Assembly: GCA_030390025.1 (NCBI GenBank)
Contig: CM059432.1
Span: 48,362,001-48,426,000, forward strand
Source of the DNA: Squalus acanthias
Taxonomy: Eukaryota
Direction: 5' to 3'
DNA: 64,000 nucleotides
How positions within the stretch are numbered: position 1 is the first letter of the stretch; every line of letters starts with the position of its first letter. The position numbers were made by a program, and so were the translations under genes. Shown here piece by piece: positions 4,201-62,744 of the stretch. The notes beneath the pieces were generated by a model, which had not been told where the DNA came from, did no database searches, and saw nothing but the letters and a program-made list of their open reading frames with translations.

Positions 4201-5872
4201 TTTCCTAACGAATTATTAAATATGCGTAGTAATGCCTTTGCTATCTCTTCCTTAGAATCTTTTAAAATGCGTGGATGCAATCCATCCGGACCAGGGGTTT
4301 TATCCTCTTTGAGTTTGATTAATTTATTTAATATACTCCCTTTTTAAATTTTAAATGCGCTTATCTCATTACTAATCTTATAGGCCAATGTCATGTCCAC
4401 TTGTTCTATCTCCCTGGTAAATACTGAAGCAAAATAATTATTTAATATTTCTGCCATCTTTCTATCGTTACCTGTGGTATTATCCTGACCATCCCTTAAA
4501 ACCCTATTCCCATCCCAACCTTCCTTTTTTAATTGATGTACATATAAAATATTTTACTATTTTGTTTTATGTTCCTTGATAATTTAATTTCATAGTCCTT
4601 CTTTCCCTCCCTAATTGTTTTTTTGACTTCTCTCCTAATCTCTTCGTATTCTCCCTTATCATGCACTCCCCTGCTGTCTATGTACTTAATGTATGCCTCT
4701 TTCCTTACCCTCAATTGTTCCCTTATGGCTTTATTCATCCATGGAGGCTCAATATTGTTTAGTTTGTTCTTTCCTTTTAGCGGAATATATTTTTCCTGCA
4801 CTCTGTTGAACACCGTTTTAAATGTTTCCCATTGCTGTTCTACATCGTTGTTTGACAATATTGTTGCCCATTTTATTTTCCCAAGTTCTATTCTCAGCCC
4901 CTCAAAATCAGTTTTTCTCCAATCTATTAACCTGGTTTTCATCATACTTATGTCCTTCTCAATTATCATCTTGAAGCGTATTATATTATGGCCACCATTG
5001 CCTAGATGTTCCCCTACTTTTACTTCTCTTATTTGCTCTGGTTCATTCCCCCTAACTAGATCTAATAGCGAATCCTCCTTTGTTGGGCGTTTTACATATT
5101 GGGTTAGAAAGGAGTCCTGTACACATTGTAGGAACTCCATTCCCTTATCCCCTTTATCTACCTCTTGTGTCCAATTAATATCGGGGTAGTTGAAATCCCC
5201 CATGATTATTATTCTATGTTTTTTACTCATTTCCCTAATTTGTCTGTATATTTCTTCCCCCACCTCCCTTCCACTATTAGGTAGTCTGTACACTATGCCT
5301 ATTAGTGTGATTAATCCTTTATTATCTTTCATCTCTATCCATATGGATTCTATTTTTGTCTCGCTAATATTTGTGTCACTTTTTTCTATTGCCATTATGT
5401 TATCCCTAATAAGTACAGCTACTCCACCTCCCCTTTTTCCCTCTCTATCTTTTCTAAATATGTTATACCCTGCAATGTTTAATTCCCAGTCCTGATTTTT
5501 CTGTAGCCATGTCTCAGTAATCCCTACTATGTCTGGTTCCTCGCCACGTATGATTGCCTCCAGCTCCCCTGTTTTATTACGGATACTGTGTGCATTGCTG
5601 TACAGACAGTTTAACTCATTTTTAATAGGATTTCCTCTCACCTTATGTTTAACCATCATTTTAGACTTCTGTTCTATTACTCTATTTATTCCCTTGCCAT
5701 GAATGTCCTCCCTTACTTTATTCTTTCCTGTGCTCTCTTTTCCTGTTTTGTTTATATTTAGGCTGGTTACGTTTCTTGTCGATCTCGCCCCCCATCTTAC
5801 TAGTTTAAAGCCCTTGCCACTTCCCTATTTACCCTTTCCGCTAGGACACGGGTCCCATCACGGTTCAGGTGT
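1226..5872 (-). mobile_element. CR1 LINE (family B), 5'-truncated, ORF2 (APE endonuclease + RT) disrupted; interrupted by another CR1 at 1296-2830
   Basis: ORF 4529-5659 has APE motifs (GITETW, MGDFNYP, LLDLV). RT pieces QHGFQKGKSCL and YLDFQKAFDKVPH. 3' tail matches that at 62990-63066. Confidence 0.9.
1296..2830 (-). mobile_element. CR1 LINE (family A) 3' fragment nested in the 3' UTR of family B CR1
   Basis: RT motifs (YLDFQRAFDKVPH, KFADDTKL, RPHLEYCVQFWSP) and (catagaaa)n tail. The host sequence resumes at tatgctccac (2831). Confidence 0.9.
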
Positions 5873-22874: not shown

Positions 22875-25800
22875 AATATGGTTGGAGGTCAAAGATAAAA
22901 AAGGACTTGTTACATTAGTAGGGGTGTATTAATAAGCCTTCAACTTGTGGGAAGGAAATGGAAGGGGAAATCTGCAGTCAGATTAGAGAGATGAAAAGGA
23001 ATAACAAAATTATGGTTCTGGGAGATTTTAATTATCCATTCATCGATTGGAACAGAGTAGATGGAGAAATGGGAATGGAATTCTTAAAATGTGTACAGGC
23101 CTCCTTTCTCAAGCAGTATGTTAGTAGGCCTACAAGGGCGGAGGCATTGCTAGATCTGGTTACAGCTAATGAAATAGATCAAGTAGATGAGCTAAACGTG
23201 GGTGAGCACCTTGGCAGTAGTGACCATAGTATGATATGGTTTAAGATCCAACTGGAAAGGGAAAAATTCACTGCAAAAACTAAAACACCAGAATGGTTTA
23301 GGGCAGATTTTAGAAAGATGAAGAGTAAGCTAGGTGAGGTGAAAGGACAAATTGGTACACGAGACTGTAGAACAAGAGTGGCTTTTAAAAAAGAAATTGT
23401 GACGGTACAGAATAGTTATATTCCATTAAAAAAGGAAACTACTAATCATTTTAGGATGACACATATAATACAAGAAGTTAGAAATCAATTGAAATTGAAG
23501 AAGGTGGCCGATGAAGACTATAAGAATAATAATAATGAAAAACTAAAGGAGAATATGAGAAAAAAAAGGCTATGGAAACAAGGAAAGCTAAGAGGGAGTT
23601 TGAGGGGAAAAAAAATTCAAAAATCATCAAAAGGAACACTGAAGTATTTTGTAAGTATATCAGTAAAGAGAGAATTGTTCAGTGAAGTGCACTCCGAGAG
23701 GAGAGGATAGTCAATTTGTAGATGATTGAAAGGTGGGGGATGTATTTAATAAATAATTCACATCAGTATTTACTAAAAAGGATATCAGAGGAGGTGAATT
23801 CTAAAGTGGTTAAGAGCAAGTTGAGCAGTATTATAATGGATGAGGAAAATTTAGGTTAGTTAAGCTAACTAGATGGGATACATCCTGGGATCCTGAGGGA
23901 GAAAATTGCAGATGCCCTAGAAATTATATTTCAGGGCTCTATTGAGTGTGGATGTATGCGAGAGGACTGGAGAGTGGTCAATGTAGTACTCATTCTTAAA
24001 AAGAGAGACAGAGCTAATCTGGATAATTATAGGCCAGTGTTTAATTAAGGATGAAATTACTATGTACCCGGATAAAGAGAAAATAGTTAGAAGTAACCAA
24101 CACGGATTTCAAAAATGACGATCATGCTTGACAAATCTCAATTCTTTGAGGAGGTAACAAACATGGTAGATGGGGGGGAAATGCAGTGGATGTAGTGTAC
24201 ATGGACTTTAGGAAAGCCATTGACAACGTACCACACAACAAACTGTAGAAAAGATTAAGGGGTAGAGAATTAGGGGGGGAAGATAGCAAATTGGTTGGAA
24301 AACAGAGTGGTTGGAAGTAGATAGTGGTGTCGCTCAGCGTTAATTTCTGGGGTGTAGAATAGTTCAGTCATAATAATTACATAATAATTTCAGTCTGTTC
24401 ACTGTGTATCTCAATGATTTGGATATAATCCTGGAGGAAGTGGTGTCAAAACCTTCAGATGATACTTAAATAAGAGGCAAGGTTAGTTCTTAAAAAAAAA
24501 CAAAGCAAGTTGTAAAGGGATACCGATAAAATGGGGAAATGGGCTAAAAAGTGGCAGATGGAATTCAATGTCAGTAAGTGCGAGCTGAAAAAAATAACAG
24601 CAGTAATTATACTCTGAACGGAAGTAGGCTTGGTCTGTGGAAGAGCAGGGGGATTAGGGGTACAGGTTCACAAGACATTAAGGTAGAAAACGTCCCAGAG
24701 AAAGAAAGAGGGATATAAAGAGAAAAAGTTTTACATCGAAAGCATTTCCCTTTCCTTTAAGTCTCCATACAAAGAACTAAAGATAACATTGCTTATAAAA
24801 CCACAAGGTGGCATTAAAGTTTTACATATAATCCGATTAACTGTATTAACTTTAGAATAATCAAAAGCTTCCCACAAATACATTAGAGTAAACTTGAAAT
24901 TTTTGTTCATTATTTTGGTACAGTCATGTTTCACTTTCTTTTTGCTTTCTCCTTTATTAATATTTACAGTCCTTTCAAGAATTATAGGGTAGAAATCACA
25001 ATTCTTACCAAATTCCTCTCTGCTATTTTAATTAAAATGCTATCCCATTTAAAACAAACATGTTAACGATTCCATTCAAACAGCAGAGAGGAATTTGATA
25101 CAATTATATCAAGTATGATAACATCACCAACAGTAATTTCTACTTTTATATCTTACTTCGTCGTAAAATTCAATAGATGATAATTTATTTAAGATAAACA
25201 ACATAGCAGGTAACGATTTTTCCAGCTTCAAGGTGGCATTTTAGAGGTTTTTTTAAAATAAATTACTGAACTTGGATTGCTGCAGAACAAATTTTAGATG
25301 GCTTAAATTACATCCAAAGAAATCTGGACAGGCTAAGTCAGTGAGCAGAGATGACAGATACAGCTCAACATTGATAAGTTTAAAGTTCATGAGAGTAGAT
25401 GAAAGAAATGTGAATGTGGGGTAGATATTAAATGGCAACATGCTTCAAGAAACAGAGCAGGAAAGAGATTTTGGTGGGTAGGGCTTTAAAGCCATTGGTT
25501 GGGTGTTTGAGACAGTTAAGAAAGCAAAAAAAACACTGGAATGCATAGCTAGGAGTATGACTTATGAGTCAAAGGGGGTAATGTTGACGTTTTGAGCCTT
25601 GGTGAGACTGCTTCTCGAGTAGTGTTGTCTTCTCTGCATTACAGAAAAGAAAAAGAGCCATTAGCGGGTGTTCAGAGGAGGGCTATGAAGCTGATTCCTG
25701 AACTTAAGAGAGCTAAGTTATAAAGAAAGATGGCTTACCCTAGTACTTTATTCTCAGAAGAGGAGGATTGGGGCGGGGGGGGGGGGGCGGGGGTGGAATT

Positions 25801-30592: not shown

Positions 30593-33500
30593 CACTCGTC
30601 TGGTTCCATTCTTATCTATCTAATCGTAACCAGACAATCACCTGCAATGGCTTCTCTTCCCGCTCCCGCATCGTTACCTCTGGTATCCCCCAAGGATCTA
30701 TCCTTGGCCCCCTCCTATTTCTCATCTACATGTTGCCCCTTGGTGACATCATCCGAAAACACAGCGTCAGTTTCCACACGTACACCGACGACACCCAGCT
30801 CTAACTAACTACCTCTTCTCTCGACCCCTCCACGGTGTCTAAATTGTCAGACTGCTTACATAGAAACATAGCAGATAGGAGCTGGAGTAGGCCATTCGGC
30901 CCCTCGAGCCTGTTCCGCCATTTCATGAGATCATGGCTGATCATCCAAATTCAGTACCCTGTCCCTGCTTTCTCCCCATATCCCTTGATCCCTTTAGCCT
31001 TAAGAAATATATCTAACTCCTTTTTGAATATATTTAATGAATTGGCCTCAACTGCCTTCTGTGGTAGAGAATTCCACAGGTTCACCACTCTCTGGGTGAA
31101 GAAATTCCTCCTCATCTCAGTCCTAAATGGCTTACCCCTTATCCTTAGACTGTGACCCCTGGTTCTGGACTCCCCCGCCATCGGGAACATCCTTCCTGCA
31201 TCTAGTCTTGTAATAAGGTCCCGCGTAAGAGATTAGCGTGCAAAGTTAAAGCACATGGGATTAGGGGTAAGGTACTGACTTGGATAGAGAACTGGTTGGC
31301 AGACAGGAAGCAAAGAGTTGGAATATGTTAGAATTTTATAAGTTTCAATGAGAACCCCTCTCATTCTTCTAAACTCTAGCGAATACAAGCCCAATCAACC
31401 CAATCTCTCTTCATACGTCATTCCTGCCATCCCAGGGATCAGTCTGGTGAATCTTCGCTGCACTCCCTCCATGGCAAGAACATCCTTCCTCAGATAAGGC
31501 GACCAAAACTAGACACAATACTCAAGGTGAGGTCTCACCAAGGCCCTGTACAACTGCAGCAAGACATCCTTGCTCCTGCACTCGAATCCTCTCGCTATGA
31601 AGGCCAACATACCATTTGCCTTCTTAACCGCCTGCTGCACCAGCATGCTTACCTTCAGCGACTGGTGCACAAGGACACCCAGGTCTCGTTGCACTTCCCC
31701 TTTTCCCAATCTATTGCCGTTCAGATAATAATCTGCCTTCCTGTTTTTGCCACCAAAGTGGATAGCCTCGCATTTATCCACATTATACTGCAGCTGCCAT
31801 GCATCTGCCCAATCACCCAACCTGTCCAAATCATACTGGAGTTTCTCTGCATGCTCCTCACAGCACACACGCCCACCCAGCTTTGTGTCATCTGCAAACT
31901 TGGAGATATTACATCTAGTTCCCTCGTCTAGATCATTAATATATATTGTGAATAACTGGGGTCCTAGCACTGATCCCTGTGGTACCCCACTAGTCACTGC
32001 CTGCCACTCGGAAAAAGACCCGTTTATTCCAACTCTTTGCTTCCTGTCTGCCAACCAGTTCTCTATCCAAGTCAGTACCTTACCCCTAATCCCATGTGCT
32101 TTAACTTTGGACGCTAATCACTTATGCGGGACCTTATCGAAAGCCTTCTGAAAGTCCAAATACACCACATCCACTGGTTCTCCCTTATCTACTCTACCAG
32201 TTACATCCTCAAAAAATTCCAGTAGATTAGTCAAGCATGATTTACCTTTTGTAAATCCATGTTGACTTTGTCCGATCCTGTCACTGTTTTCCAAGTGCTC
32301 TGCTATTACATCTTTTATAATGGACTCTAGCATTTTCCCCACTACCGATGTCAGGCTTACTGATCTATAATTCCCCGTTTTCTCTCTCCCACCTTTTTTA
32401 AATACTGGGGTTACATTAGCTACCCTCCAATCCATGGGAACTGTTCCAGAGTCTATAGAATTTTGGAAGATGACCAGCAATGCATCTACTAATTCTAGGG
32501 CCACTTCCTTAAGTACCCTAGGATGTAGATTATCAGGCCCTGGGGATTTATCGGCCTTCAATCCCGTCAATTTCCCTAACACCATTTCCCTACAAATACT
32601 GATTTCATTCAGTTGCTCCCTCTCATTAGACCCCATGTTCCCCGACATCTCTGGGAGGTTATTTGTGTCCTCCTTTGTGAAGACAGAACCAAAGTATGTA
32701 TTGGTCTGCCATTTCTTTGTTCTCCATTATAAATTCCCCTGATTCTGACTGCAAGGGACCTACGCTTGACTTCACCAATCTTTTTCTCTTCACATATCTA
32801 TAGAAGCTTTTACAGTCAGTTTTTATGTTCCCTGCAAGCTTACTCTCATACTCTATTTTCCCCCTCTTAATTAATCCCTTTGTCCTCCTTTGCTGAATCC
32901 TAAACTGCTCCCAATCCTCAGGTTTGCTGCTTTTTCTGGCCAAATTATATGTCCTCTCCTTGGATCTTATGCTATCCCTAATTTCCCTTGTTAGCCATGG
33001 TTGAGTCACCTTTTTTGTTTTATTTTTATGCCAAACAGGGATGAACAAATTCTGTAGTTCATCCATGCAATCTTTAAATGTTTGCCATTGCCTATCCACC
33101 GTCAACCCTTTAAGTAATGTTCCCCAATCCATCCTAGCCAACTCGCGCCTCAGACCATCGTAGTTTCCTTTATTTAAATTCAGGACCCTAGTCTCGGAGT
33201 CAAATACTTCACTCTCCATCGTAATGAAGAATTCTATCATATTATGATTGCTCCTCCCCAAGGGGCCTCGCACAACAAGATTGCTAATTAATCCTTTCTC
33301 ATTACATAATACCCAGTCTAAGATGGCCTGATCTCTAGTTGGTTCCTCGACATATTGGTCCAGGAAACCATCCTGTATACACTCTAGGAATTCCTCCTCC
33401 ACAGTATTGTTACTAATTTGGTTAGCCCAATCTATATGTAGATTAAAGTCACCCATGATAACTGCTGTGCCCTTATTGCACGCATCTCTAATTTCTCATT

Positions 33501-36359: not shown

Positions 36360-36996
36360 ACAGACTGATGGGATCTGTACTCTGCCAGCTCTAAAGGTCC
36401 AACATGAAATGGATTTGGACAGTCTCAAAATAGTATCTGGTGGGCATTGACCCACTGGACAATTTTCTTTCAATGTTTTCAAGACCCTCTATACTAATGA
36501 CTGGCTAAATAACTAGTTGACCAACTAGTGACTATCCTCCTTGGGGAAGAATGGGAAGGTAAATGAGTTCTCTTTGGGGCTGAGTTGCCTGCAAGATGCC
36601 ACATCTGGAAACAGAAGTTCAGAAATGCAGATTTGGTAATCCGATAGATGAATAAGGCAATTCAACAGTACTTTGAGGTACTAATGATGATTGACAGCCA
36701 ATCAGTCCCATAATGCAATCAGACTGAATCTAATATTGTTAAGATTTCTGTGAATTTTTTGGTAATTAAAAACCCAGTTGTCACTAGATTTTTGTTTCTT
36801 TACAGCTTTTAAAGTAATTCTTAGTTGTTTTTAACCTCCTCATTCAATTTTTTCTCCAACTTTCATGACTCATAGACATATAAAACCTTTGTTATTTGAA
36901 TTACTGGAAAAGTACTTGGTGCTACCACTTTCTTGAAAGCAGGCATTTAAATGTATAATTTTTCAGCCGATACAGTTAAATAACACACAGTCTTAC

Positions 36997-37171
36997 CTTG
37001 TTGGGCTAACTCTTGTCCCCATATCCGCTTTTCAGCTCGAATGCCATCAATCACAGACTCCTGTGCAGTTAGCTGTGAAATCAGTCTCGATTTCTCCTGC
37101 TTAAGTAGTTCAATCTGAACAGTTTTTTTCTTATCTTCTTCAGCTACGTGTTCCAATGCTCGGAACCGGCT
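36997..37171 (-). CDS. LRRCC1: LRRCC1 coding exon SRFRALEHVAEEDKKKTVQIELLKQEK...WGQELAQQG
   Basis: Acceptor atatAG and donor GTaaga, 175 bp, phase 0/1. QIELLK.EK and WG.ELAQQG motifs. Confidence 0.92.
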
Positions 37172-37226
37172 CTATATTAAAATTGAGCAGAATTTCAAAA
37201 ATCAAGATGCTAACAATAATCTTGAC

Positions 37227-37374
37227 CAGGATAATTTCTGCAGAGGTTCTCCCACTTGCCCGCTGTAACTTTGACGGCAGAACCGCGAAAACATGGTGTC
37301 AATGCCATTTTTCCACAGCTCTTCCACAGAAATTACAGCAGACAAGTGGGACCACCTCCTTGGAAATTCACCCC
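37227..37374. mobile_element. Palindromic MITE (~150 bp)
   Basis: ~45-bp imperfect inverted arms (gaggttctcccacttgcccgctgtaactt / aaattacagcagacaagtgggaccacctc). Confidence 0.6.
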
Positions 37375-38564
37375 CTATGTCGCTAACCGACTGACATACT
37401 AATTGGCAGTGAAGTGCTAAAATGCTGATCAGAGAACCAAAATGCCCCAAAGCAATGATGATTTTTTCCAAATAATCATAAAAATGATCGTATGCAATCT
37501 TATTTTGACAGTCTGCAATATCTGTGTATAGAAATTAAATCAAAGAAAGTGTGCTGAAATTGAAATGCTGAATCAAATCTTACCACTTACAAGAGTTGAG
37601 CAGTGCAAATTTGTCTGGATCATATTAGGACATGCACACTAGGCTTAACTGTTCCCGACAATGCCTCATATATGCAACTTGTTACCAATTTGCTGCTTAT
37701 CTTGACCATTTTTGTCTGTTCCAACTGATTGAATATAGCAGGATTCCACTGTATCCATTGTTACTTCAACAAAATATAATGAATGGTCTGTCAAATTTAT
37801 AATTGACTTAATGTTGGATTCATTATCAAATGCACTTGTTTTACAATTGTGAATTATAATAATGCATTGCACAGTGTAATGAAAACTAATTACAAGGATC
37901 AGAATTAAGGCTCACGAAGAGCGGGGGCTGAACAATTATTATACATCACAACATGAACCACAGAAAATTGATGACATTCTTTCATGTGATTAAAAGGTTA
38001 GAATTATTTGTATTCTTGAGCTCCCTCTCCCAGAAACTAGAGGATCCTTAATCACTTACCAAAAAAAATTACAAAAAAGGATAATTGCTAATCTCAGACA
38101 TGACAGGTATAAGAGGGCAAGTTTTGGTGCATTGGAGACTCGGTCTGCTTATGGAATCTGCCTTTTTGCTTTGAACACCAGATCAAACTGTTGGGAGAAA
38201 GCCCAAACCATACAGGTTAGTTGAACCAAAGCAATGAAAGTAAGTTCTGTGTTTCTGTGTGATCTATAGGTTGAAATGAGAATACTATGTTATAAAGATT
38301 TTCAAATGTCTTTAAAATTATGCCCTTAAAGTTTCAGACTAGCAATACAATGTACAGGAAACTCTTGTTTAACCGGCACCTAAATATCCGGAATTCTCTC
38401 TTAACCGGCAAAAATCATACTCCGAAAACTCCTCTCAAATAACCGGCAATGTTGCCGAGTCCGAGTCTCCCGCGAACGCCGAGTTAGTCAGTGGGGGTAG
38501 TTCTCCAAAGTGCCACTACTCGGCCTCCTGGCGCTGTCGGAAGTCCGAACACTGCAGTAACAGG

Positions 38565-38770
38565 AGTCTGATTCTCCCGTGCTGCCGGGAGTCTCTTCTG
38601 ATCGGCCATTTTACTGTGTGTCTCCCGCGCTGCTGGTAGTCCCTTCTGATACACCATTTTACTGTGTGTCTCCCACGCTGCTGGTAGTCTCTTCTGATAC
38701 ACCATTTTACTGTGTGTCTCCCACGCTGCTGGTAGTCTCTTCCTAGCCACCATTGTTCTGTGTGTCTCTC
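38565..38770. repeat. ~4 tandem copies of a 48-bp unit in the Tigger 5' region
   Basis: Unit ccattttactgtgtgtctcccacgctgctggtagtctcttctgataca. Confidence 0.85.
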
Positions 38771-38806
38771 CATCTTTATCGGGAATTATCTCCCCCATCT
38801 TGCATT

Positions 38807-40564
38807 ATGGAATTCCCAAAAGCTGGTCTAAGCAAAAGGAAGAGAGTGGTCTTAACTTTAAAACAGAAAATCGAGATATGCCAACGACTAGAAAGGGGAG
38901 AGAAGCGTATCAACATTATGAATGAATTCAAAATCGGTTCGTCAACAATCTACGACATCAAATCGCAGAAGGATAAGCTGCTCAAGTTTTATTCAAGCTC
39001 GGAGACATCTAAGAGTGTAGAGAAACGGCGTACGCTTCGTAAGCCTAAGCTTGAAGAGCTGGATACCGTGCTTTATGAATGGTTTTCTCTTAAGCGTTCA
39101 GAGGGTGTTCCAATTTCCGGACCCATGCTAATCGAGAAAGCGAAGGATTTCTACGAAAGGATGGAGCTCACTGACAAGTGTGCTTTCTCCGAGGGATGGC
39201 TAACGTGCTTCAAGTTACGGCACGGGATACGACGACTCGATATTTCCGGGGAGAAGAAATCAGCTGATCACGACGCCGCAGAAGAATACTGCGATTATTT
39301 CAATCGGATTGTGCAGCAACATGATTTGTCGCCAGCACAGATATATAATGCCGATGAAACTGGCTTGTTTTGGAGGTTTTTGCCAGAATCAACGCTTGCT
39401 GGGGCTAGTGAGGCTAATGCTTCAGGTTACAAGAAAAATAAAGATCGTGTAACCGTGCTAGCATGTGCGAACGCTGCTGGATCACACTGGGTTAAACTTC
39501 TTGTTATCGGGAAGTATAAAAATCCCCGTGCATTTAAAAATGTGAGGCACTTACCTGTTGAGTACAAAGCTCAGAAAAATGCTTGGATGGATAAGGAAAT
39601 CTTCTCCGATTGGTTCCATCATATTTTTGTTCCATCTGTGAGGGAACATTTCCGTAAAATAGGGAAACCTGAAGATAGCAAATGCATTTTATTGCTTGAT
39701 AATTGTAGAGCCCATCCGCATGAATCCGAGTTGGTTTCGGGAAATATTTTCACCATTTATTTGCCACCAAATGTAACTTCTCTCATCCAACCCATGGACC
39801 AGGGCGTTATCCAAAATCTGAAGCGTCATTACAAGAAAGACTTCCTACGTAAACTGATAAGCCAAGATGACAATATTCAAGCATTTCAGAAGGAATACAA
39901 TATTAAAGATGCCATCTATAATGTTGCATGTTCCTGGAACTTTGTGAAAGGTCACACTCTGAGGCAAGCCTGGTGCAAATTGTGGCCTTCTGTAATGTTT
40001 GCTGAAGGTTCTTCTTCAGAGGAGGAATTTCATGGTTTCAATGTTCGTCCCAAGAAGAGTACAATAATGGAAATGGCTGGCATGGTGAAAAATGCAGGCC
40101 CAGCAAACCCTCTACGTCATCTCAGTGAAAGTGATATCGAGCAGTGGGTTGATGCAGATAGAGAAGTTGGTGTTGTGCATATGCTAAGTGATGATGAAAT
40201 AATTGAGAATGTTTTGAATCCAAAGAAAGAAAAGGAAAGTGAGATGGAAAGTAAAGAGGATGATATTTCTGAAGAGAACAAGATTTCTTGGGCTAAAGCT
40301 GCAGAAGGATTTTCTTCAATCCTCAAATTTGCTGAAAGGCAGACTTGCTACTCTGCCCAAGAAGTTATGCAACTCCATATTCTGCATTCCACGTTTCTAC
40401 AGAAAAGGCAAGAGTCCACTAAGCAAACCGACATCCGCAACATGTTTAAGAAAGCTTCCAAAAGAGTCGAAGCAGCGGAAGTGCCTGAAGAATCTGTGGA
40501 ACTGCATGATATTGATGACCCAGCTGGCACGGATATTCCTGATGAACCAGATGACTCGGAATAA
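38807..40564 (+). CDS. Tigger/pogo transposase, 585 aa (CENP-B-type HTH domains + DDE_1, DD32D); jerky/TIGD-like
   Basis: ATG in ATTATGG context. [46 protein letters not shown] and IQPMDQG motifs. No stops or frameshifts. Confidence 0.93.
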
Positions 40565-41708
40565 GTGTACAGTCAACTACAGTACTGTATACAGTCGTTT
40601 ATAAGTTTTGTTTTACTGTTAAGTAATTAAAGAGTTATGGATTACCCTCAACTGGCAGTACTGTACTTAATCAAGCATCTTCCACCATCCATTTAACACA
40701 ACATTCTGTAGGTGAGTACCCAAATACTGTATACTGCACATTTCTTGATTTTTTAGTTTTGTTTGTTAAAAATAGCCTCGGTAGATATAACTCTCCGTTA
40801 TCCGGAACTTTTGATCAACCGGCACCACGCCGGTCCCGTCGGTGCCGGATACCAAAGAGTTTCCTGTAGTTAACTTGAGGCCTGATCAGCAATAGATCTT
40901 TACGGTGAGCTCCAGCTTCTTTCTTTGGTATTACTACTGTACCTGTTGTGCAAGTCATATACTTGCAGTGGCATAATTGCTGGTGCAATTAAATGTTATA
41001 ATGAGACTTCACGAATGACAATTAAAAATCTGGTTTCTGTTTGAAGATTCTGTATCACGTAGAAATCTACGAACAGGTGTTCAGTGTACACACAGGAGAT
41101 GCAAGATGAATTACGAATAGTGGCAGTAATGTGACCCTGTGTGTGTTTGTAGCTTGTATTGCAAGGCTGTCTGGCTAAATTGTTTTATTGCTCATCAATT
41201 GACTGATAATGATTCTTCATTAATCATCTCAAGGGAACAGTTTAGTTCTGATCTTTTACTGATGGCAGATGCAATTTCATACACTAAACTTTCTTTTCAT
41301 CCTGTTTTCATCCTATATTATATTGTACCTAATTGTATTAGAGTTTGTCATATTTTGCCATCTGTCATACCTTGGACAAGGACAATCATTCTTTCTTTCT
41401 GAAGGTGATTTACCAGCACCTTACTTTTTCAAAACGCTGCATTTGTATACTTATTAAATGCTCAAGCAAATCTCCTGTGGTGTTGCTCATGGAGAGTTGG
41501 AGGTTAAGGTATTGTGGAGAGAGGAGTCTGGGATGAGGGAGGGACAAATAGCACCTCAGTAATTTGGAGAATAGGCAGAAGAATATAATTATTAAATGAT
41601 CTATAATTTGGGAGTGTGGTGTTGGAATGTTAGTTTGATGTACAAGGAGTGGAGAATGTGGGTTTGCCTCTATATTGCTTGATTGTGAGTTCCTGATCTC
41701 ACAATGAA

Positions 41709-47825: not shown

Positions 47826-50800
47826 TTAGTTTTTAAATTTATTCTCAGGATATGGGCGTAACTTATTTATTACCCATCCCTACTTACTGTAAGAAAGTGA
47901 TGGCGGGCATTCTTCTTGAACCGCTGCATTTGTAGCGATTTGATACAACTTGCTAGGCCACTTCAGAGGGCAGTTAAGATAACCACATTGGGACTGGAGT
48001 CACATAATATTTTTAAACTAATTAAAGAAATGTAAAGCTAGTTCTGTCTGATACTGACATTTGCGCTGTAGGGGTGGGGTTCATTGTAAGGTTCCCCGCG
48101 CTATTATGGGAAGCTGTGGCATACAATCACCTGGCTTCAACCTATCCCCCTGGTGACCCTTTCCTATTAGACAGGATCTCTGCCACCCAACCAGCTTGAG
48201 TCTGATCCCACTATCCAGGGATCTCGTGCCTTGACAGTGAGAGAAGGGGAGGGGGCAGTGGCCAGTGGAAGCTCTAGATCTGCTGGGAGAATGCAGTGCA
48301 GTCTGAACTCCTTTGAGGGTGGGGTTAACAGAAGCATGGAGAAGCTGGCATCCTTAGGGGGCTGCATCCACAGAGGCCAGTGGTGTTTTGGGTTTCTGGC
48401 AGGGAGAGGGCTTCAGTGGCTGGTGCCGTTTAGATTTCTGGGTGGCGGGTGGTGTTCAGCGGCCAGTGGACTCCTCGCAGGGCTTTTCTGTTTTAGAAAG
48501 CCATATACTATTAACCAGCTATATTTGTTGTTTAAATAAAACAGGGTTTTCATATTTTACCCCACCCATCAGAAGCCCGAAAGCCACTGTGATCTGTCGG
48601 CCTGGGGCCTGGCCAGATCCCTTCCTTGACTGGCGTCCTGCAGCCACTATAGAAAAATATGGCCTTCGGCTTTTGGGGACTCCTTACTCTGTCTTGCCAC
48701 CAAACACCTCCCCTCTGAAAGGACAGAAGGGAGAGAGGCAGAAACAGAAGAACACAAAGAGAAGCATATGAAGACAGAGCGAGAAAGAAAAACAGCAACA
48801 TAAAGACGACAGGCAGGTAAGAGAGCAAATCTTCTGATTCACTGTGAACAATGCCACAGGGGAACCACTAGTATCTAATAGAAAGTTTAATTAAAAACTA
48901 AAACAAATTAGGTTGTTTAAACTTTGTGCTTCCAAATTGGATAAGCTAAACAATGGTTTACTTAAGACATATGTCACATTGGTACATCGGCAGAGACACA
49001 CAGAACAGACTTCCATTATATCACTATCACACTAAGGACAACCAGTGTAATCATAACCTGTAAACAGTATTTAGTTTGTGCTGGCGAATTAGCACAGGAC
49101 ATAATGCTAAAGGTAGCATTACCAACAGAATAACGTAACAGATTAGAAAAGTAAGACAAATCTACATTAGCAGTATAAATGAGCAGTCTGCACTAGATTA
49201 AAAAGCTACTGCAGGACTCTTCCCTATAAAACTGTAATTTCCCTACTGCTACATTGACCCAAGTTGAATTCATGATTAAGAACATAACATGTAGAATTGC
49301 AAAGAAATAGCTTGAACTTGTCTCTTGTGAAGTAACTTACCTTCTAAAAATCAAGGTATATAAAAGCCACAAATTCTGGAAAATATCAAACCATCCCAAT
49401 GGTCCAAATTGTTACAGATGACCTGCCTTTCATAACCCTGCATTTGGTTGAAATTAATGGATTTAAGAACATAAGAAATAGGAGCAGGAATAGGCCACTT
49501 GGCCCCTCGAGCCTGCTCCGCCATTCAATAAGATCATGGCTGATCTAGGGCTCAGAGCAACTTCCCAGCCCGCTCCCCATAACCCTTCACTCCCTTATCT
49601 TGCAAAAATTTGTCTATCTCCACTTTAAAATGTATTTAATGACCCAGCCTCCACAGCTCTCTGGGGCAGAGAATTCCACAAATTTACGACGCTCTGAGAG
49701 AAGAAGTTCCTCCTCATCTCAGTTCTAAAAGGACGACCCTTTATTCTGAGACTGTGCCCCCGAGTTCTAGATTTCCCCATGAGGGGAAACATCCTCTCTG
49801 CATCTACCCTGTCGAGCCCCCTCAGTATCTTCTATGTTTCAATAAGATCACCTCTCATTCTTCTAAATTCCAATGGGTATAGGCCCAGCCTGCTCAACCT
49901 TTCCTCATAAGTCAAACCCCTCATCTCTGGAATGAACCTAGTGAATCGTCTCTGAACTGCCTCCAATGTAAGTATATCCTTCCTTAAATAAGGAGACCAA
50001 AACTGTACGCAGTACTCACGGTGTGGTCTCACCAATACCTTGTACAGTTGTAGCAGGACTTCCCTGCTTTTATACTCCAACCTCCTTGAAATAAAGGCCA
50101 ACATTCCATTTGCCTTTTTGATTACTTGCTGTACCTGCATGCTAACTTTTACAGTCCCTCTGAACTGTAGCATTTTGTAATCTCTCTCCATTTAAATAAT
50201 AGTTTGCTTTTTTATTTTTCCTGCCAAAGTGGATAACCTCGCACTTTCCCACATTATACTCCATCTGCCAAATGTTTGCCCACTCACCTAGCCTGTCTAT
50301 ATCCCTTTGCAGATTCTTTGAGTCCTCTGCACAACTTGCTTTCCCACCCATCTTTGTATCATCTGCAAACTTGGCTACATTACACTCGATCCCTTCATCC
50401 AAGTCATTAATGTAGATTGTAAATAGTTGGGGCCCCAGCACCGATCCTTGTGGCACCCCACTAGTTACCATTTGCCAACCAGAAAATGACCCATTTATCC
50501 CGACTCTCTGCTTTCTGTTAGTTAGCTAATTCTCTATCCATGCAAATATATTACTCCCAACTCCGTGAGCTCTTATCTTGTGCAGTAACCTTTATGTGCC
50601 TCCTTATCGAATGCCTTCTGGAAATCCAAATACACCACATCTACTGGCTCACCCTTGTCCACCCTGCTTGTTACATCCTCAAAGAACTCCAGCAAATTTG
50701 TTAAACATGATTTCCCTTTCCTAAAACCATGCTGACTCTGTTTGACTGCAGTATGTTTTTCTAAATGCCCTGCTACTGCTTCCTTAATGAAGGACTCCAG

Positions 50801-52209
50801 CATTTTCCCAATGACAGATGTTAGGCTAACTGGTCTATAGTTTCCTGCTTTCTGTCTCCTTCCTTTCTTAAATAGGGGTGTTACATTAGCGGTTTTCCAA
50901 TCCGCTGGGACCTCTCCAGAGTCCAGGGAATTTTGGTATATTGCAACCAATGCATCCACTATCTCTGCAGCCACTTCTTTTAAGACCCTGGGATGCAGGC
51001 CATCTGGTCCAGGGGACTCGTCGTCTTTTAGTCCCATTATTTTACTGAGTACTATTTCCTTAGTGATAGTGATTGTCTTTAGTTCCCCACTCCCTGTGGC
51101 CCCTTGATTATCCATTATTAGGATGTTGTTAGTGTCTTCTACAGTGAAGACAGATGCAAAATATTTGTTCAGAGTCTCTGCCATTTCCCCGTTCCCCATT
51201 ATTAATTCCCCAGTCTCATCCTCTAAGGGACCAACGTTTACTTTAGCTACCCTCTTCCTTTTTATATACCTGTAGAAGCTCTTACTATCTGTTTTAATGT
51301 TTCTTGCCAGCTTACTCTCATAATTCATGTTCTCTCTCTTTATTATTTTTTTAGTCATCCTTTGCTGGTTTTTAAAAATTTCCCAATCTTCTGGTCTCCC
51401 ACCAATCTTGGCAACATTGTATGCCTTCGTTTTCAATTTGATACCATCCTTTACTTCCTTAGTTAGCCACAGATGGTGCTCCCTTCTCTTATAATCTTTC
51501 TTTCTCACTGGAATATATTTTTGTTGAGAGTTATGAAATATCTCCTTAAATGTCCGCCACTGCATTTCAACTTTCTTACCCTTTAATTTCTTTTTCCAGT
51601 CCACTTTAGCCAGTTCTGCCCTCATGCCATTATAATTGCCTTTGTTTAAGATCAGGGCACTGGTTTGGGATACAACTTCCTCACCCTCCAACTGAATTTG
51701 AAATTCAACCATGCTATGATCACTCTTTCCTATGGATCATTTATTAATTCTGACTCATTACATAGTACCAGATCCAAGATAGCCTGCTCCCTGGTTGGTT
51801 CCATTACATACTGTTCTAGGAAAACATCCCGGATGCACTCTATGAACTCCTCCTCCAGGCTACCATGACCAATTTGATTTGTCCAATCAATATGGAGATT
51901 AAAATCACCCATGATTATTACTGTACCTTTTTTACAGGCCTCCATTATTTGTTGTTTTATACTCTGTCCAATAGCATTGCTACTGTTCGGGGGCCTATAG
52001 ACTGCGCCCACCAGAGACTTTTTCCCCTTATTTTTTATCTCCACCCAAACCAATTCTATATCTTGATCTTCTGAGCCAATATCACTTCTCACCACTGCAC
52101 TGATCCCATCTTTTACCAACAAAGCCACCTCACCTCCCTTTCCTTTCTGTCTATCCTTCCGAATTGTCAAATACCCTGGAATATTCAATTCCCAGCCCTG
52201 GTCACCTTA

Positions 52210-52637
52210 ACATAGAAACATAGAATCTAGGAGCAGGAGTAGGCCATTCGGCCCGTCGAGCCTGCTCCGCCATTCAATACGATCATGGCTGATCATCCAA
52301 ATCCAGTACCCTGTCCCTGCTTTAATCCCCACAGTACACATATCCCACCCTACCCCCGCAACTCCACGTATTTAATTCCCCCTAACATATCCCATCCTAT
52401 CCCCATAACCCCACATATTTAATCCCCCCTAACACTAAGGGTCAATTTATCATAGCCAAATCAACCTAACCCACACATTTTTGGACTGTGGGAGGAAACC
52501 GGAGCACCCGGAGGAAACCCACGCAGACACGGGGAGAATGTGCAAACTCCACACAGACAGTCACCCGAGGTCAGATTCGAACCCGGGTCTCTGGCGCTGT
52601 GAGGCACCAGTGCTAACCACTATGCCACCGTGTTGCC
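52210..52637 (-). mobile_element. Full-length HE1-like V-SINE inserted in the CR1 endonuclease region
   Basis: tRNA-like head, V-domain (gtttcctccgggtgctccggtttcctcccaca on minus) and CR1-derived 3' tail. cacctt duplicated at the flanks. Confidence 0.85.
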
Positions 52638-53095
52638 CTCTATGCCACCTTGCAACCACGTCTCTGTAATGGCGATCCGATCATACCCATTTGTATCTAT
52701 TTGTGCCGTCAACTCATTGATCTCATTACGAATGCTGCATGCATTCAGATATAGAGTTTTTAAGTTTGTCTTTTTACCATTTTTCCTTGTTTTGGCCTTT
52801 TTTTCCTGTTACACTCTTATTTTTAAACATTCTGTCCCTTCCTGTCACACTCTGGTTGTTATTTCCCCCATCTCTAGCCTGCTCTATTGCTTTCTCATTT
52901 CTCATTGACTTTTTATTTTCCCGCTCACCTGGATCCTCCCCCCCTCTCTACAGCCCTAGTTATTCGATTTGCCAGGACTCTAGCCCCAGCATGGTTCAAG
53001 TGAAGCCCGTCCAAACGGAACAGCTCCCTCTTATCCCAATACTGGTGCCAGTGCCCCACAAATCAAAACCCATTTTTCCCACACCAGTCTTTGAG

Positions 53096-53887
53096 CTACT
53101 CGTTCATTTCTCTGATCTTATTTACCCTATGCAAATTCGCTCGTGGCTCAGGTAGTAATCCAGAGATTATTACCTTTGTGGTTCTGCTTTTTAATTTAGC
53201 CCCTAGCTGCTCATACTTTCTCAGCAGAACCTCTTTCTTTGTCCTACCTATGTTATTGGTACCTACGTGGACCATGACAACTGGATCTTCCCCCTCCCAC
53301 TCCAAGTTTCTCTCCAGCCCAGAAGAGATGTCCTTAACCCTGGCACCGGGCAGGCAACACAGCCTTTGGGACTCACACTCTCGGCTGCAGAGAACAGTAT
53401 CTATCCCCCTCACTATACTGTCCCCAATTACTACAACAGTTCTTTTTGCTCCCCCCACTTGAATGGCTCCCTGTACCACGGTGCTGTGGTCAGTTTGCTC
53501 ATCCTCCCTGCAGTCCCTGGCCTCGTCCACACAGGGAGCAAGAATCTCGTACCTGTTGGACAAGGCCAAGGGCTGAGGCTCCTCCACCATTACCTCCTGG
53601 ATCCCATTACCTGCCTCGCTTGTAGTGACACCCTCCTGTCCCTGACCATGGGCCAAATTGGAAGTAATTATTCTAGTGGGTGTGACTGCCTCCTGGAACA
53701 TAGTGTCCAGGTAACGCTCCCCCTCCCTAATGTGTCGCAGTGTCTGAAGCTCAGACTCCAGCTCATCAACTCTGAGCCGAAGTTCCTCGAGCAGCCAACA
53801 TTGGCTGCAGATGTGGTCGCCCTGGACCTCGATGATGTCCACGAGCTCCCACATGCAACAACAACAACACATTGCCTGGTCTCCCAT
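53096..53887 (-). pseudogene. CR1 ORF1 (Cys-rich finger/leucine zipper + SGNH esterase-like), truncated at 3' end
   Basis: C..C.MW...HIC..C..LEELRLRVDELE, VVIGDSIVRG, CLPGARV and HVGTNN motifs. Confidence 0.85.
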
Positions 53888-55300: not shown

Positions 55301-55486
55301 CTTAAGCTCTGAAATTGTTTCCTGTTTGGATTTTGCCAGTTCTGCTATCTTAGCTTTCTGCTCTTTCACCATGGTTGTCAGCTCCTGAACCAAAGTCCCT
55401 GATTGTTTCTCCTTCTGCTGTGACTGAGCAAGGGCCTGTTTGTAGTTTGCTAGTTCTGCTGTCATATGATCAAAGCCACTCTTTAC
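55301..55486 (-). CDS. LRRCC1: LRRCC1 coding exon VKSGFDHMTAELANYKQAL...KSKQETISELK
   Basis: Acceptor tacAG and donor GTaaac, 186 bp, phase 0/0. Coiled coil with LT.MVKEQK.K.AE motif. Confidence 0.9.
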
Positions 55487-56084
55487 CTGTATTTTTTTTT
55501 TAAAAGAAATATATGATTACAGACGACACATTAAACAGAACAAGCTAGTGTTAATTGTACTTACAGCTATCTCTACAGAGTAGTCAACTCTCTATTGCTA
55601 CTACTTTTCTTGTCCAAAATTATTTACCATTGAAGTCAATGCAGAATTTCCTCCTTAAAGGCTGGCTATTTTGCATTGTATACCACTATATTCTACCTTT
55701 ATGTCATGTTTAGGACCCAAGAATAAAATGTAGCCTGAATACTGAGAATTAAACTCCCGCTGTCTGACATTAAGTTGATAAATTTGGGTATACTTTTGCA
55801 TATTAAATAATTTATAACAGTTACTTGTAATATACACTCAAGATTAAAATTGATCTGCCTTACATATCGCCACAAAGTTTTGGGACAGCAACGCTTTTCA
55901 GTGACAATCTGCAATAAATCCAAACTCCACACGAGCAGAGGGAATTATGCCCATCTACACCTGAATTAGGAATATTTGATCCTAATTCAAAAGGAAAATA
56001 GCATTCCATTTCACAGCACTGAGAACTTAATCTCGAGCAAAAATAATGGCAAATGGTGTGGAAAAGCTATATCCAGAAAATTAT

Positions 56085-60259: not shown

Positions 60260-62744
60260 GGCCGGGATTTTCCGGGGGGGTCAGCGGGCGGGATTGAGCG
60301 GGTAGGGTGCAAAATTTGATTTTTTTGACAGCGGGTCGGGACCCCGTTGTCAGCCCGCCGCAACGCACCTTTCCCAATGTCGGGTCTGCCAGCACTAAGC
60401 AGACCTGACACACAGTGGCGGGCGACCCAATTAAACTCATTACCATCTGGTTGACAGATCATTAACAGCCACTTTAACTTCATGGCCACTGTAAGAAATC
60501 TTTAAACCCAAAGAAATTGCAAGTTATAACAGGAAAAATTATGCTGCAAAAAGTAGGTATGCCAACTCAGCAGATGAGGGCTGGCTGATGACCTAGAGAG
60601 AATTTTGGTCACATCAGCTAAGCACAGAGGGCTCAGATCATCACAAGGACAGGCCTCCCAGCAGACATACCTAAACTGATAAGGAGGACAGAATGGAGCC
60701 GGGAGGATAAGCAAGAGGTCTTTAGAAACACAACAAGACATTTAGAACAGAGATACGGAAATAGCTGACCTCGGCAAAATAGGAGGGGCGGCTGTTAGAG
60801 GTACCCCTTCCCTTGTAATTGGAAAAAAGGTAATAAAAACAGGCGACCGAGAGAGGAAAACAGGCAGTTAGGGGCGAAGGCTTCTCAGAGGTGGATGCAT
60901 GCTGGTTACGGCCTAACACCTTGGTCAAGTTTAGCCTCTGAGGTGGATCAATGCTGGCTGACGGCCTAGCACCTCCAACAGCTCGAGGGATGACCCACGG
61001 AAGTGGCTGCTGCCGCAGACTGCAGGAATCCACCCAATCCGGGACCACCGTACTGCCTCAATGCCCGTCCATCCGTCCGGTCGTTTCGTTCCGTTCCAGG
61101 GTCGTAGGTCGCTCTCATCTGTCACGGGTTGTATGTCTACTGTATCTATTTCAATCGCATGTAGTATCTGATTATGCTTAAACTGTAGCTCTTTAATAAA
61201 ACGCCTTACAACTCCTAAGACCCTTTGGGTAATCTGTGTGTGACCTGTGATCCAAATCTTACACCACGGGAACCACACTGTTCAAGGACCACGGCTGTCA
61301 ACCTGAGGCGGGAGTTAAATGGCTATTGCTCCAGCTGATTAATTGACAGCTTTAAATGTACAGTAAAACTCCCACCTGACAGATCATCACTTTCCTCAGC
61401 CACAAGCTATTTCTCAGTCCATTTCCAGCACAGATTCTGCAGGTTTTCCACTTTCCACTCTCCATCTCACCTCATTGGAAGAACTCTCTCACCACTGACA
61501 GAATGCTTCTGTTATCTCTACTTCACCTGCCATCTATTCCATCAACATGGGTGCCCTTTATACTGACCTTGGTCCTCAGAATCCGACCACGGTCAGCCCC
61601 AACACCAGCAGCACCAGGCACACCAGCAGCACCAACAACACTACCAACCTTCTCCGCAATCAACTGATGCTGCACAGGACAGAGAGCATCAGCACATTGC
61701 TGCCCGGGAGACCAGGGATGGCCTCACCATGGCCAGATTTACTTCACTTGACACTGTACACCCTGGCTGCCACATGATGCGCCAGGTTGGCACCACCTCA
61801 CACCAACACCATAAAGCATCCCTACAATGTCCAAGCCATTCCTTTCACACTCACCACCATTGTGGGGGGTACATTATGTCTCACCATTCACTGCAACTCA
61901 CTAAGCCACTTCCAAAGGTGCACACAAATCTGTCCAAGAACAGAAAGTGTTGAAAATAAAGGTTTCAATGCTTGATAGCACATTAACAGAAACGTTACAT
62001 GAACATTGAATAAAACACCCAAGTGGCTACCCTTGTGTGTGTTTATTGGTATGATTGCACTCGGGTGAGTGTGAGGGGTGGCTAGTGAGATGGGGATGTG
62101 ATAATGTAGATAGAGAGAGAGGGATGGGTGGAGATGCAAGGTAAGTTGGTGTGAGTAAGGATGTGCAGGAGTAGGGTAGGGAAGGTAGAGTGATGGGGAT
62201 GTGATGAGAGGCACAGCAGGATGAAGAGTGTGGCTTTGTACTAACGTTTTGTGATTTAATGAGATAATTGAAAGGTTTGCACCACTGCACCCAGGTCCTC
62301 CTGACAACATCCCTGCTTGTGACCTCCTCTGCAATGTGCAACCAGGCTGTTTTGGTCTCCTGGGGAGGTGTCTTCTGCCTATTGGAAGGGAAGAGGACCT
62401 CCCTGCGTGCTCTGACTCCCTCCATAAGCATATGGAGGGATTCATGAGAACCTGGGTGCAGCCCTGCACCTCTGTGCAGTGCTTCAACGCTGTAGAGCAC
62501 TGACAGCACAAATGTTAAAAGAAAGTTTGCCATGGTCCCTTTAAGGAAACCGGCTGATGACACGTCATGAATGACGTCACCAGACCCGCTTCCTCTAATT
62601 GGACCGGGAAACGCGCTGGGTGGGCTTAACAAGCCCTATCAACATAAAATCATTTTCCAGAGCGGGATAGAGCCAGCAGCGGGGTCGGGACCCGCCACCG
62701 ACATCACCTGCCCCAGACCCGCCGAGGTAAGGAAAATCTCGAGC
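60260..62744 (-). mobile_element. Harbinger-like element with Myb/SANT exon 1 (~62246-62490, minus) and a nested solo LTR
   Basis: Ends GGCCGGGATTTTCC / GGAAAATCTCGAGC. Peptide SLHMLMEGVRARREVLFP...AWLHIAEEV...RTWVQW is homologous to the 27648 ORF. Confidence 0.8.
60490..61263 (+). mobile_element. Solo LTR (774 bp), ERV- or Gypsy-like
   Basis: TGTAAGA...TCTTACA termini, exact 4-bp TSD CCAC, AATAAA at 61195-61200. Confidence 0.85.

Follow-up and report, generated by a model that had tools for sequence, protein, structure and literature searches.

A dispersed JRK-like Tigger transposon family in Squalus acanthias and a probably impaired copy in an LRRCC1 intron

We have analyzed a stretch of 64,000 nucleotides from the Squalus acanthias genome (GenBank assembly GCA_030390025.1, contig CM059432.1, positions 48,362,001 to 48,426,000 of the forward strand), hereafter the window, in which positions are counted from the first letter. 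An intron of the LRRCC1 gene carries a 2512-bp Tigger/pogo DNA transposon (38355–40866) with an uninterrupted transposase gene. A preliminary description took this element to be young, potentially autonomous and possibly acquired by horizontal transfer. The element belongs to a dispersed mobile family with non-autonomous derivatives, and the copy in LRRCC1 is likely to be an ageing, probably impaired passenger of this high-copy family, which falls in the JRK-like group of Tiggers.

The element and its family

The element is flanked on both sides by TA (38353–38354 and 40867–40868), its target-site duplication (TSD), and ends in 26-bp terminal inverted repeats (TIRs; 38355–38380 on the plus strand and 40841–40866 on the minus strand) that start with CAGGA and are identical at 22 of 26 positions. 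When the two end regions were shuffled 200 times as mononucleotides, 22 matches were never reached (maximum 20). A single stop-free open reading frame (ORF; 38807–40564, plus strand) encodes a JRK-like Tigger transposase of 585 amino acids. In this protein Pfam recognizes, all above the curated cut-offs, two helix-turn-helix (HTH) domains, CENP-B_N (aa 10–61, 38834–38989, E 1.8e-18; CENP-B DNA-binding domain 1hlv_A, E 4.8e-08) and HTH_Tnp_Tc5 (aa 83–143, 39053–39235, E 8.6e-15), followed by DDE_1 (aa 212–389). The catalytic region (39353–39973) holds a complete DD32D triad: Asp183 (39353), Asp298 (39698) and Asp331 (39797). A TA TSD, short TIRs starting with CAG and a single ORF with these three domains and a DD32D triad together place the element with Tigger/pogo, as the preliminary description had it; Tiggers have TIRs of 8–33 bp and a single ORF of 300–685 aa (accessible part of PMC9219625). 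The DD32D spacing also occurs in JRK and in several Tiggers.

Other features noted in the preliminary description are likewise present. The start codon is preceded by A at -3 and followed by G at +4, to which we add an out-of-frame upstream ORF of 12 codons (38449–38487, plus strand) that terminates well upstream of the main ATG. ATTAAA at 40626–40631, a candidate polyadenylation signal, is the sole poly(A)-type hexamer 3' of the stop codon. The ratio of observed to expected CpG is 0.80 in the 5' leader, 1.08 in 38807–39600 and 0.45 in the 3' part of the ORF. The two flanks have ratios of 0.28 and 0.43, and the whole window has one of 0.40. The 5' leader also contains a tandem array with a 48-bp unit (38573–38768; 4.1 copies, 89% matches). 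The short motif WAYCCGGMA occurs six times within the 2.5-kb element and twice in the other 61.5 kb: four matches (38370, 38385, 38402 and 38440, in 38370–38449) lie at the 5' end and two (40799 and 40817, in 40799–40824) are subterminal at the 3' end, and they are putative transposase-binding repeats. Pogo elements move by a cut-and-paste mechanism, and their subterminal repeats are bound by the transposase.

No second copy of the element was found within the window, and the evidence for copy number comes from contigs of four of 24 public sequencing runs (X3, X7, X18 and X19) placed on 36900–41650. X3 is a DNA run of organism A, X18 comes from organism C and X19 from organism D. In the search of runs, 18 of the 24 listed carry at least half of the element's words (best share 0.74), and small shares were found in X19 and X20; the 18 word-rich runs bear three organism codes or no label, and none is recorded as RNA, the kinds of run being guesses. 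The flanks of the element are covered in X3 by single contigs of depth 11–15 with 9 mismatches to the window in 2284 letters, which makes organism A the same species as the window or a sister species. Similarly, an LRRCC1 exon with 0 differences in 178 letters shows that organism B is very closely related to the host.

Inside the element the picture is different. A 113-nt interior contig of X3 (38966–39078) has no differences from the window and a depth of 7280, 489–656 times that of the flanks, and summed depth in X3 is 20,000–65,000 inside the element and 540,000–586,000 at its ends. Among the 4635 contigs placed for this run, 1477 are at least 99% identical to the window, 1342 fall at 95–99%, 1394 at 90–95% and 422 below 90%. 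The family thus appears to comprise hundreds of near-identical interior copies, with the ends more numerous still. Immediately beyond the TA, contigs pass from the element into unlike flanks at 11 left and 11 right ends in X7 (agreement 0.48 and 0.45) and at 42 left and 35 right ends in X19 (agreement 0.39), so that the TA on the left is common to the insertion sites of other copies and loose ends of contigs begin behind 40868 on the right. Internal deletions are frequent: among 15 of 37 joints, 12 bring the two ends of the element together and yield derivatives of ~140–610 bp. One such joint, from 38542 to 40729 (~326 bp), has a depth of 6750 in X3 and is also present in X7 and X18.

The contigs also document variation among copies. 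The number of 5' subterminal repeats differs, with joints leading back from 38461–38484 to 38418–38434, and copies in organism D skip 68–78 bases just before and within the 48-bp array (38542–38621). The 3' third of the ORF (39824–40557) contains many sites at which an alternative letter accounts for about half of the X3 depth (e.g. 40264, 40276–40279 and 40470), and this suggests at least two subfamilies.

By analogy with the wider family, the two HTH domains of the transposase would bind the TIRs and the adjacent short repeats, and the DDD center would excise the element and join it into a TA that becomes duplicated. The same transposase would mobilize in trans the internally deleted derivatives of 300–600 bp that keep both ends.

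Age and state of the LRRCC1 copy

Both junctions of the LRRCC1 insertion are present in X3 (contigs 17 and 24, with 6 of 1477 and 3 of 807 flank letters differing). The left contig continues across the TA and into the TIR with no break, which suggests that the X3 sample lacks an empty allele at the locus, with the proviso, which applies to private letters as well, that contigs lose rare variants. The ORF of this copy has private letters at at least nine sites (from 31 ORF rows among 40 of 140 substitution rows), a letter being private when another one is found in at least 98% of the X3 depth and in all of the X7 and X18 depth. These nine letters amount to 0.51% of the ORF; in clean X7 contigs the figure is 4 of 1107, or 0.36%. 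Six of the changes are replacements and three are silent, compared with a neutral expectation of 72–78% replacements (p 0.42–0.72). Four replacements fall on conserved residues: R228W, C340R, R390C and E483K, the first and third of which are CpG decay. Among relatives, position 228 is R or K in 13 of 15, position 340 is C in 10 of 12, position 390 is R in 10 of 15 and position 483 is D or E in 10 of 13. A structure prediction of the protein with AlphaFold (pTM 0.22, mean pLDDT 54.7) was too poor for judging these substitutions. The chance that a frame stays free of stop codons after nine random substitutions is ~64–71% (indels not counted), and the intact ORF therefore needs no selection.

These observations are consistent with a copy that has drifted neutrally since landing, with ~0.4–0.5% private change, as DNA transposons within vertebrate genomes do (accessible part of PMC7070016). 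We attempted to convert this divergence into time using the mutation rate of the epaulette shark (7e-10 per generation, confidence interval 1.4–14.1e-10; accessible part of PMC10587355). The resulting 5.7–7.1 million generations, or 2.8 million with the highest rate of the interval, rest on the rate of another species and on CpG-rich DNA, and we do not use them as a date in years; the sole inference kept from the calculation is that the insertion is not recent.

The family as a whole has a longer history. Copies in organism D (X19) are 2–12% diverged, the frameshifted ones 6–12%, and together with the X3 spread from above 99% to below 90% identity this would point to amplification over a long span followed by a late, low-divergence wave. 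The preliminary description's "young" is accordingly true in a relative sense: the family has low-divergence copies, but the insertion is shared with X3 and frameshifted copies occur in organism D. As for "potentially autonomous", frame, triad and TIRs are intact as described, but with nine private letters, a neutral 6:3 ratio and four changes at conserved residues the autonomy of this copy is doubtful, and judged from its letters this copy is probably an impaired remnant and not a source.

Several points weigh against this interpretation. Neither the triad nor the HTH domains are damaged, and the effects of the substitutions are predicted from conservation; one relative, P0121, likewise has C at position 390. 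Errors of assembly, or inheritance from a rare source copy, might account for the private letters, and with 40 of 140 substitution rows covered, nine changes are too few to tell neutrality from weak selection. The copy number is based on word depth in contigs and is not a true copy count, the 500–650-fold figure coming from one contig. Finally, X3 is the one other sample examined at the LRRCC1 locus, and it may not be independent of the source of the window.

A separate matter is whether the family is still mobile in sharks through other copies and drives a large pool of short derivatives. We regard this as possible, though the odds are against it. A more demanding proposal is that the LRRCC1 copy itself is a competent autonomous source and that the family is moving now. 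The intact ORF, triad and TIRs, the good start context and the CpG-rich 5' half favor it, as do the 1477 of 4635 X3 contigs with at least 99% identity. Between organisms A and D, the majority letters differ by five silent and three replacement changes (p 0.015–0.044), a hint that source copies have been filtered for function. X7 is relevant here, too: the LRRCC1 exon forms an isolated block in a longer contig, resembling spliced RNA and marking the run as RNA-like, and two ORF contigs, one of 336 nt and one of 538 nt, have 0 and 3 differences. These contigs carry the majority letters and not those of the copy under study; read-through from the hundreds of intronic copies would explain them equally, and contigs give neither strand nor start nor level of transcripts. 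The private letters of the LRRCC1 copy are in none of the contigs of the four runs, and it therefore has no visible progeny. Together with the replacements among its private changes, the filled locus in X3 and the lack of a joint spanning a whole element among 15 of 37 joints, this makes the proposal improbable, and we retain the view of an ageing passenger.

Relatives and alternative origins

Among the 120 best of 1175 protein matches, all named ones are annotated as "jerky protein homolog". Identities are 68% to coelacanth, 67% to alligator, 64–68% to turtles, 64–73% to carpet sharks, 60% to possum JRK and 52% to mouse JRK; none of these 120 exceeds 73% and no representative is closer, and the exact protein is absent from the searched collection of 15 billion. 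In a careful 20-row LG+G4 tree a pair of carpet-shark proteins (Chiloscyllium P0007 and Rhincodon P0162) is sister to the window protein (support 100/98). A quick 59-row mixture tree groups the window protein with coelacanth, reptile and mammalian JRK (SH-aLRT 96), but the 20-row tree, where deep branches are weakly settled, does not recover this group; therefore we do not claim that the family is the direct ancestor of JRK. The trees include no references for the pogoR, Passer, Lemi, Fot and Mover families. In the 59-row tree, two JRK-like transposases that carry Pfam PF01352 (which we take to be KRAB), P0011 of a softshell turtle and P0071 of a caecilian, are found in different parts, and these fusions are possibly independent.

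The closest described families would be Alsi_1 and Pesi_2, judging by their TIRs in the accessible part of Table S1 of PMC9219625. The reptile Tiggers listed there (Alsi_1 and Almi_2 of alligators; Pesi_2, Chmy_2, Apsp, Plme and Mate_2 of turtles) also have TA TSDs, are 2432–2753 bp long compared with 2512 bp for the shark element, and have a single ORF of 524–601 aa compared with 585. The Alsi_1 and Pesi_2 TIR motifs match the shark 3' TIR at 20 of 24 positions and the 5' TIR at 18 of 24. Two of the proteins retrieved, Alligator sinensis P0004 (597 aa, 67% identity) and Pelodiscus P0006 (586 aa, 64%), equal Alsi_1 and Pesi_2 in length and are probably the same sequences; both lack the third Asp, which the shark element keeps. 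TIRs of the reptile Tiggers start with CAGCA or CAGTA, whereas those of the shark family start with CAGGA, and the reptile families have 4–29 copies with at most three intact, compared with about hundreds of near-identical interior copies and abundant derivatives in the shark. None of the five cartilaginous-fish rows in the accessible part of PMC9219625 has the TIR of the shark element.

The best match (68%), coelacanth P0002, belongs to a cluster that is multicopy, as is the shark family. It consists of 15 models with records of eight lengths, 92–99% mutual identity and DDD in 12 of 15, and constitutes a separate family in another host, compared here by protein only. In coelacanth RefSeq, the models named "jerky protein homolog" number at least 15 in this cluster (P0002, P0122–P0135) plus at least three in a second cluster of five (P0005, P0146–P0149), and by their sequences these look like transposon copies annotated as genes. 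A coelacanth sequence that matches the cluster by eye is listed under JRK in the accessible part of PMC7386202, where such sequences are called JRK pseudogenes. The same source derives JRK from a Tigger, gives it a DD32D/E spacing and regards JRK-like sequences of cartilaginous and lobe-finned fishes as pseudogenes. JRK shares CENP-B_N, HTH_Tnp_Tc5, DDE_1 and the DD32D/E spacing with the shark element (accessible part of PMC7386202, Table 1), but is single-copy and conserved (97–100% identical in the marsupial set), whereas the shark element is multicopy and mobile and has TIRs. The JRK-like protein of carpet sharks has an intact DDD, 64–65% identity to the shark element and a long stem branch (0.37). 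A further 585-aa JRK-like protein (P0049, P0163–P0170) is 91–100% identical across skates and a devil ray, with DDD intact in the two rows checked; a single-copy Leucoraja element with a 585-aa protein is listed as an intact Tigger in the accessible part of PMC9219625, and the ray protein may be a domesticated gene.

We found no description of the shark family in the accessible literature; it may be catalogued in Repbase or Dfam, which were outside the search, or in subscription papers. Neither "TigC" nor "Tigger10" occurs in the accessible part of supplement 3 of PMC7386202, and the accessible part of PMC5753468 names Tigger10 merely in a list. Intact Tiggers are recorded in four cartilaginous fishes, the coelacanth and reptiles, with at most ~8 intact copies in any vertebrate genome; one bat and the coelacanth are the sole hosts for which present-day activity is considered possible (accessible part of PMC9219625). 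As a type the element is ordinary; its scale, apparently hundreds of near-identical copies of the ORF region, intact or not, is absent from the accessible parts of the surveys consulted.

Could the family have entered the shark lineage recently from a non-shark host? DNA transposons rely on horizontal transfer for long-term survival and are filtered at transfer (accessible part of PMC7070016). Identity of the transposase to a turtle protein is 66%, as against 59% between sawshark and turtle LRRCC1, although LRRCC1 is a single fast-evolving gene and protein identity is not the same as synonymous divergence (dS). JRK-like proteins of cartilaginous fishes do not form one clade (p-AU 4e-6), and organism C (X18) holds the element at 18 differences in 1305 letters with almost no cover of the flanks, flanks and exon being uncovered in X18 and X19 and hence uninformative on synteny. 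Against such an arrival stand the 73% ceiling on identity, the carpet-shark pair as sister, and a host-like tree that holds all relatives from lobe-finned fishes and tetrapods together and is not rejected (p-AU 0.157). Organism D shares the family, including its old frameshifted copies, and organism B is very close to the host. There is, on the sequences compared, no sign of a recent non-shark donor, which leaves a recent transfer very unlikely and the preliminary description's "horizontally acquired" without support as a recent event. The 66% versus 59% identity, the 5:3 ratio of silent to replacement changes between organisms A and D and the filtering at transfer are hints of a possible older one.

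That the ORF is a JRK-like gene of the host, domesticated, present once and nested in LRRCC1, is scarcely credible: the "jerky" annotations, the CpG-rich 5' end and the carpet-shark pair (bamboo and whale shark, 83% identical, triad intact, with the look of a kept gene) speak for it, and the triad does not discriminate, since marsupial JRK keeps DDD too, but the depth hundreds-fold over the flanks, the many insertion sites and the deletion derivatives largely refute a single-copy gene of JRK or TIGD type. Identity to the carpet-shark proteins is 64–65%, where LRRCC1 of sawshark and bamboo shark shares 80%. The preliminary description would have read a single syntenic copy under purifying selection across sharks as domestication; we find a multicopy element whose own changes have no silent excess (n is small), and its classification as a transposon stands.

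The host intron and the meaning of the family

The location in LRRCC1 is borne out by the exon at 36998–37171 (minus strand), which matches shark LRRCC1 at 91–98%, and by eight minus-strand exons found with sawshark LRRCC1 by tblastn. The element lies antisense to the gene in an intron of ~18 kb, between exons at 55489–55301 and 37171–36986. The exon 5' of this intron (55301–55489) has approximate tblastn limits; the one 3' of it (36996–37171) aligns as a single separate block within a 2502-nt contig of X7, the pattern expected of a spliced exon. Elsewhere in the window there are 11 other ORFs of at least 150 aa starting with ATG, the longest of 379 aa. Of the ten scanned for domains, five have partial endonuclease, reverse transcriptase (RT) or Myb domains only and five have no match, which fits the earlier statement that every other transposon ORF is broken, within a scan of ORFs that is not an exhaustive repeat annotation. 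Broken pieces of the LINE type (partial endonuclease or RT) lie in LRRCC1 introns at 50573–53887, 32118–33456 and 4529–5659 (all minus strand) and 22958–23710 (plus strand). The 168-aa ORF at 62027–62533 (minus strand) has a Myb/SANT-like domain (PF13873, E 2.7e-06), of a kind that accompanies Harbinger transposases.

The family represents an unusually large, low-divergence expansion of a vertebrate Tigger among relatives of JRK, and it cautions that sequences annotated as "jerky protein homolog" in sharks and the coelacanth can be transposon copies and not genes. If, against the odds, other copies keep the family mobile, sharks would harbor a high-copy Tigger that is still living, from the group behind mammalian JRK and a kept gene of carpet sharks. 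Taken with the coelacanth cluster, it would mean that "JRK pseudogenes" and "jerky homologs" of these fishes are transposon families, and it would provide a natural working relative for testing what JRK has kept and lost. Should some copies still move, the family would be one of the few active Tiggers of vertebrates, might serve as a gene-transfer tool and would offer a mobile counterpart to JRK among its relatives.

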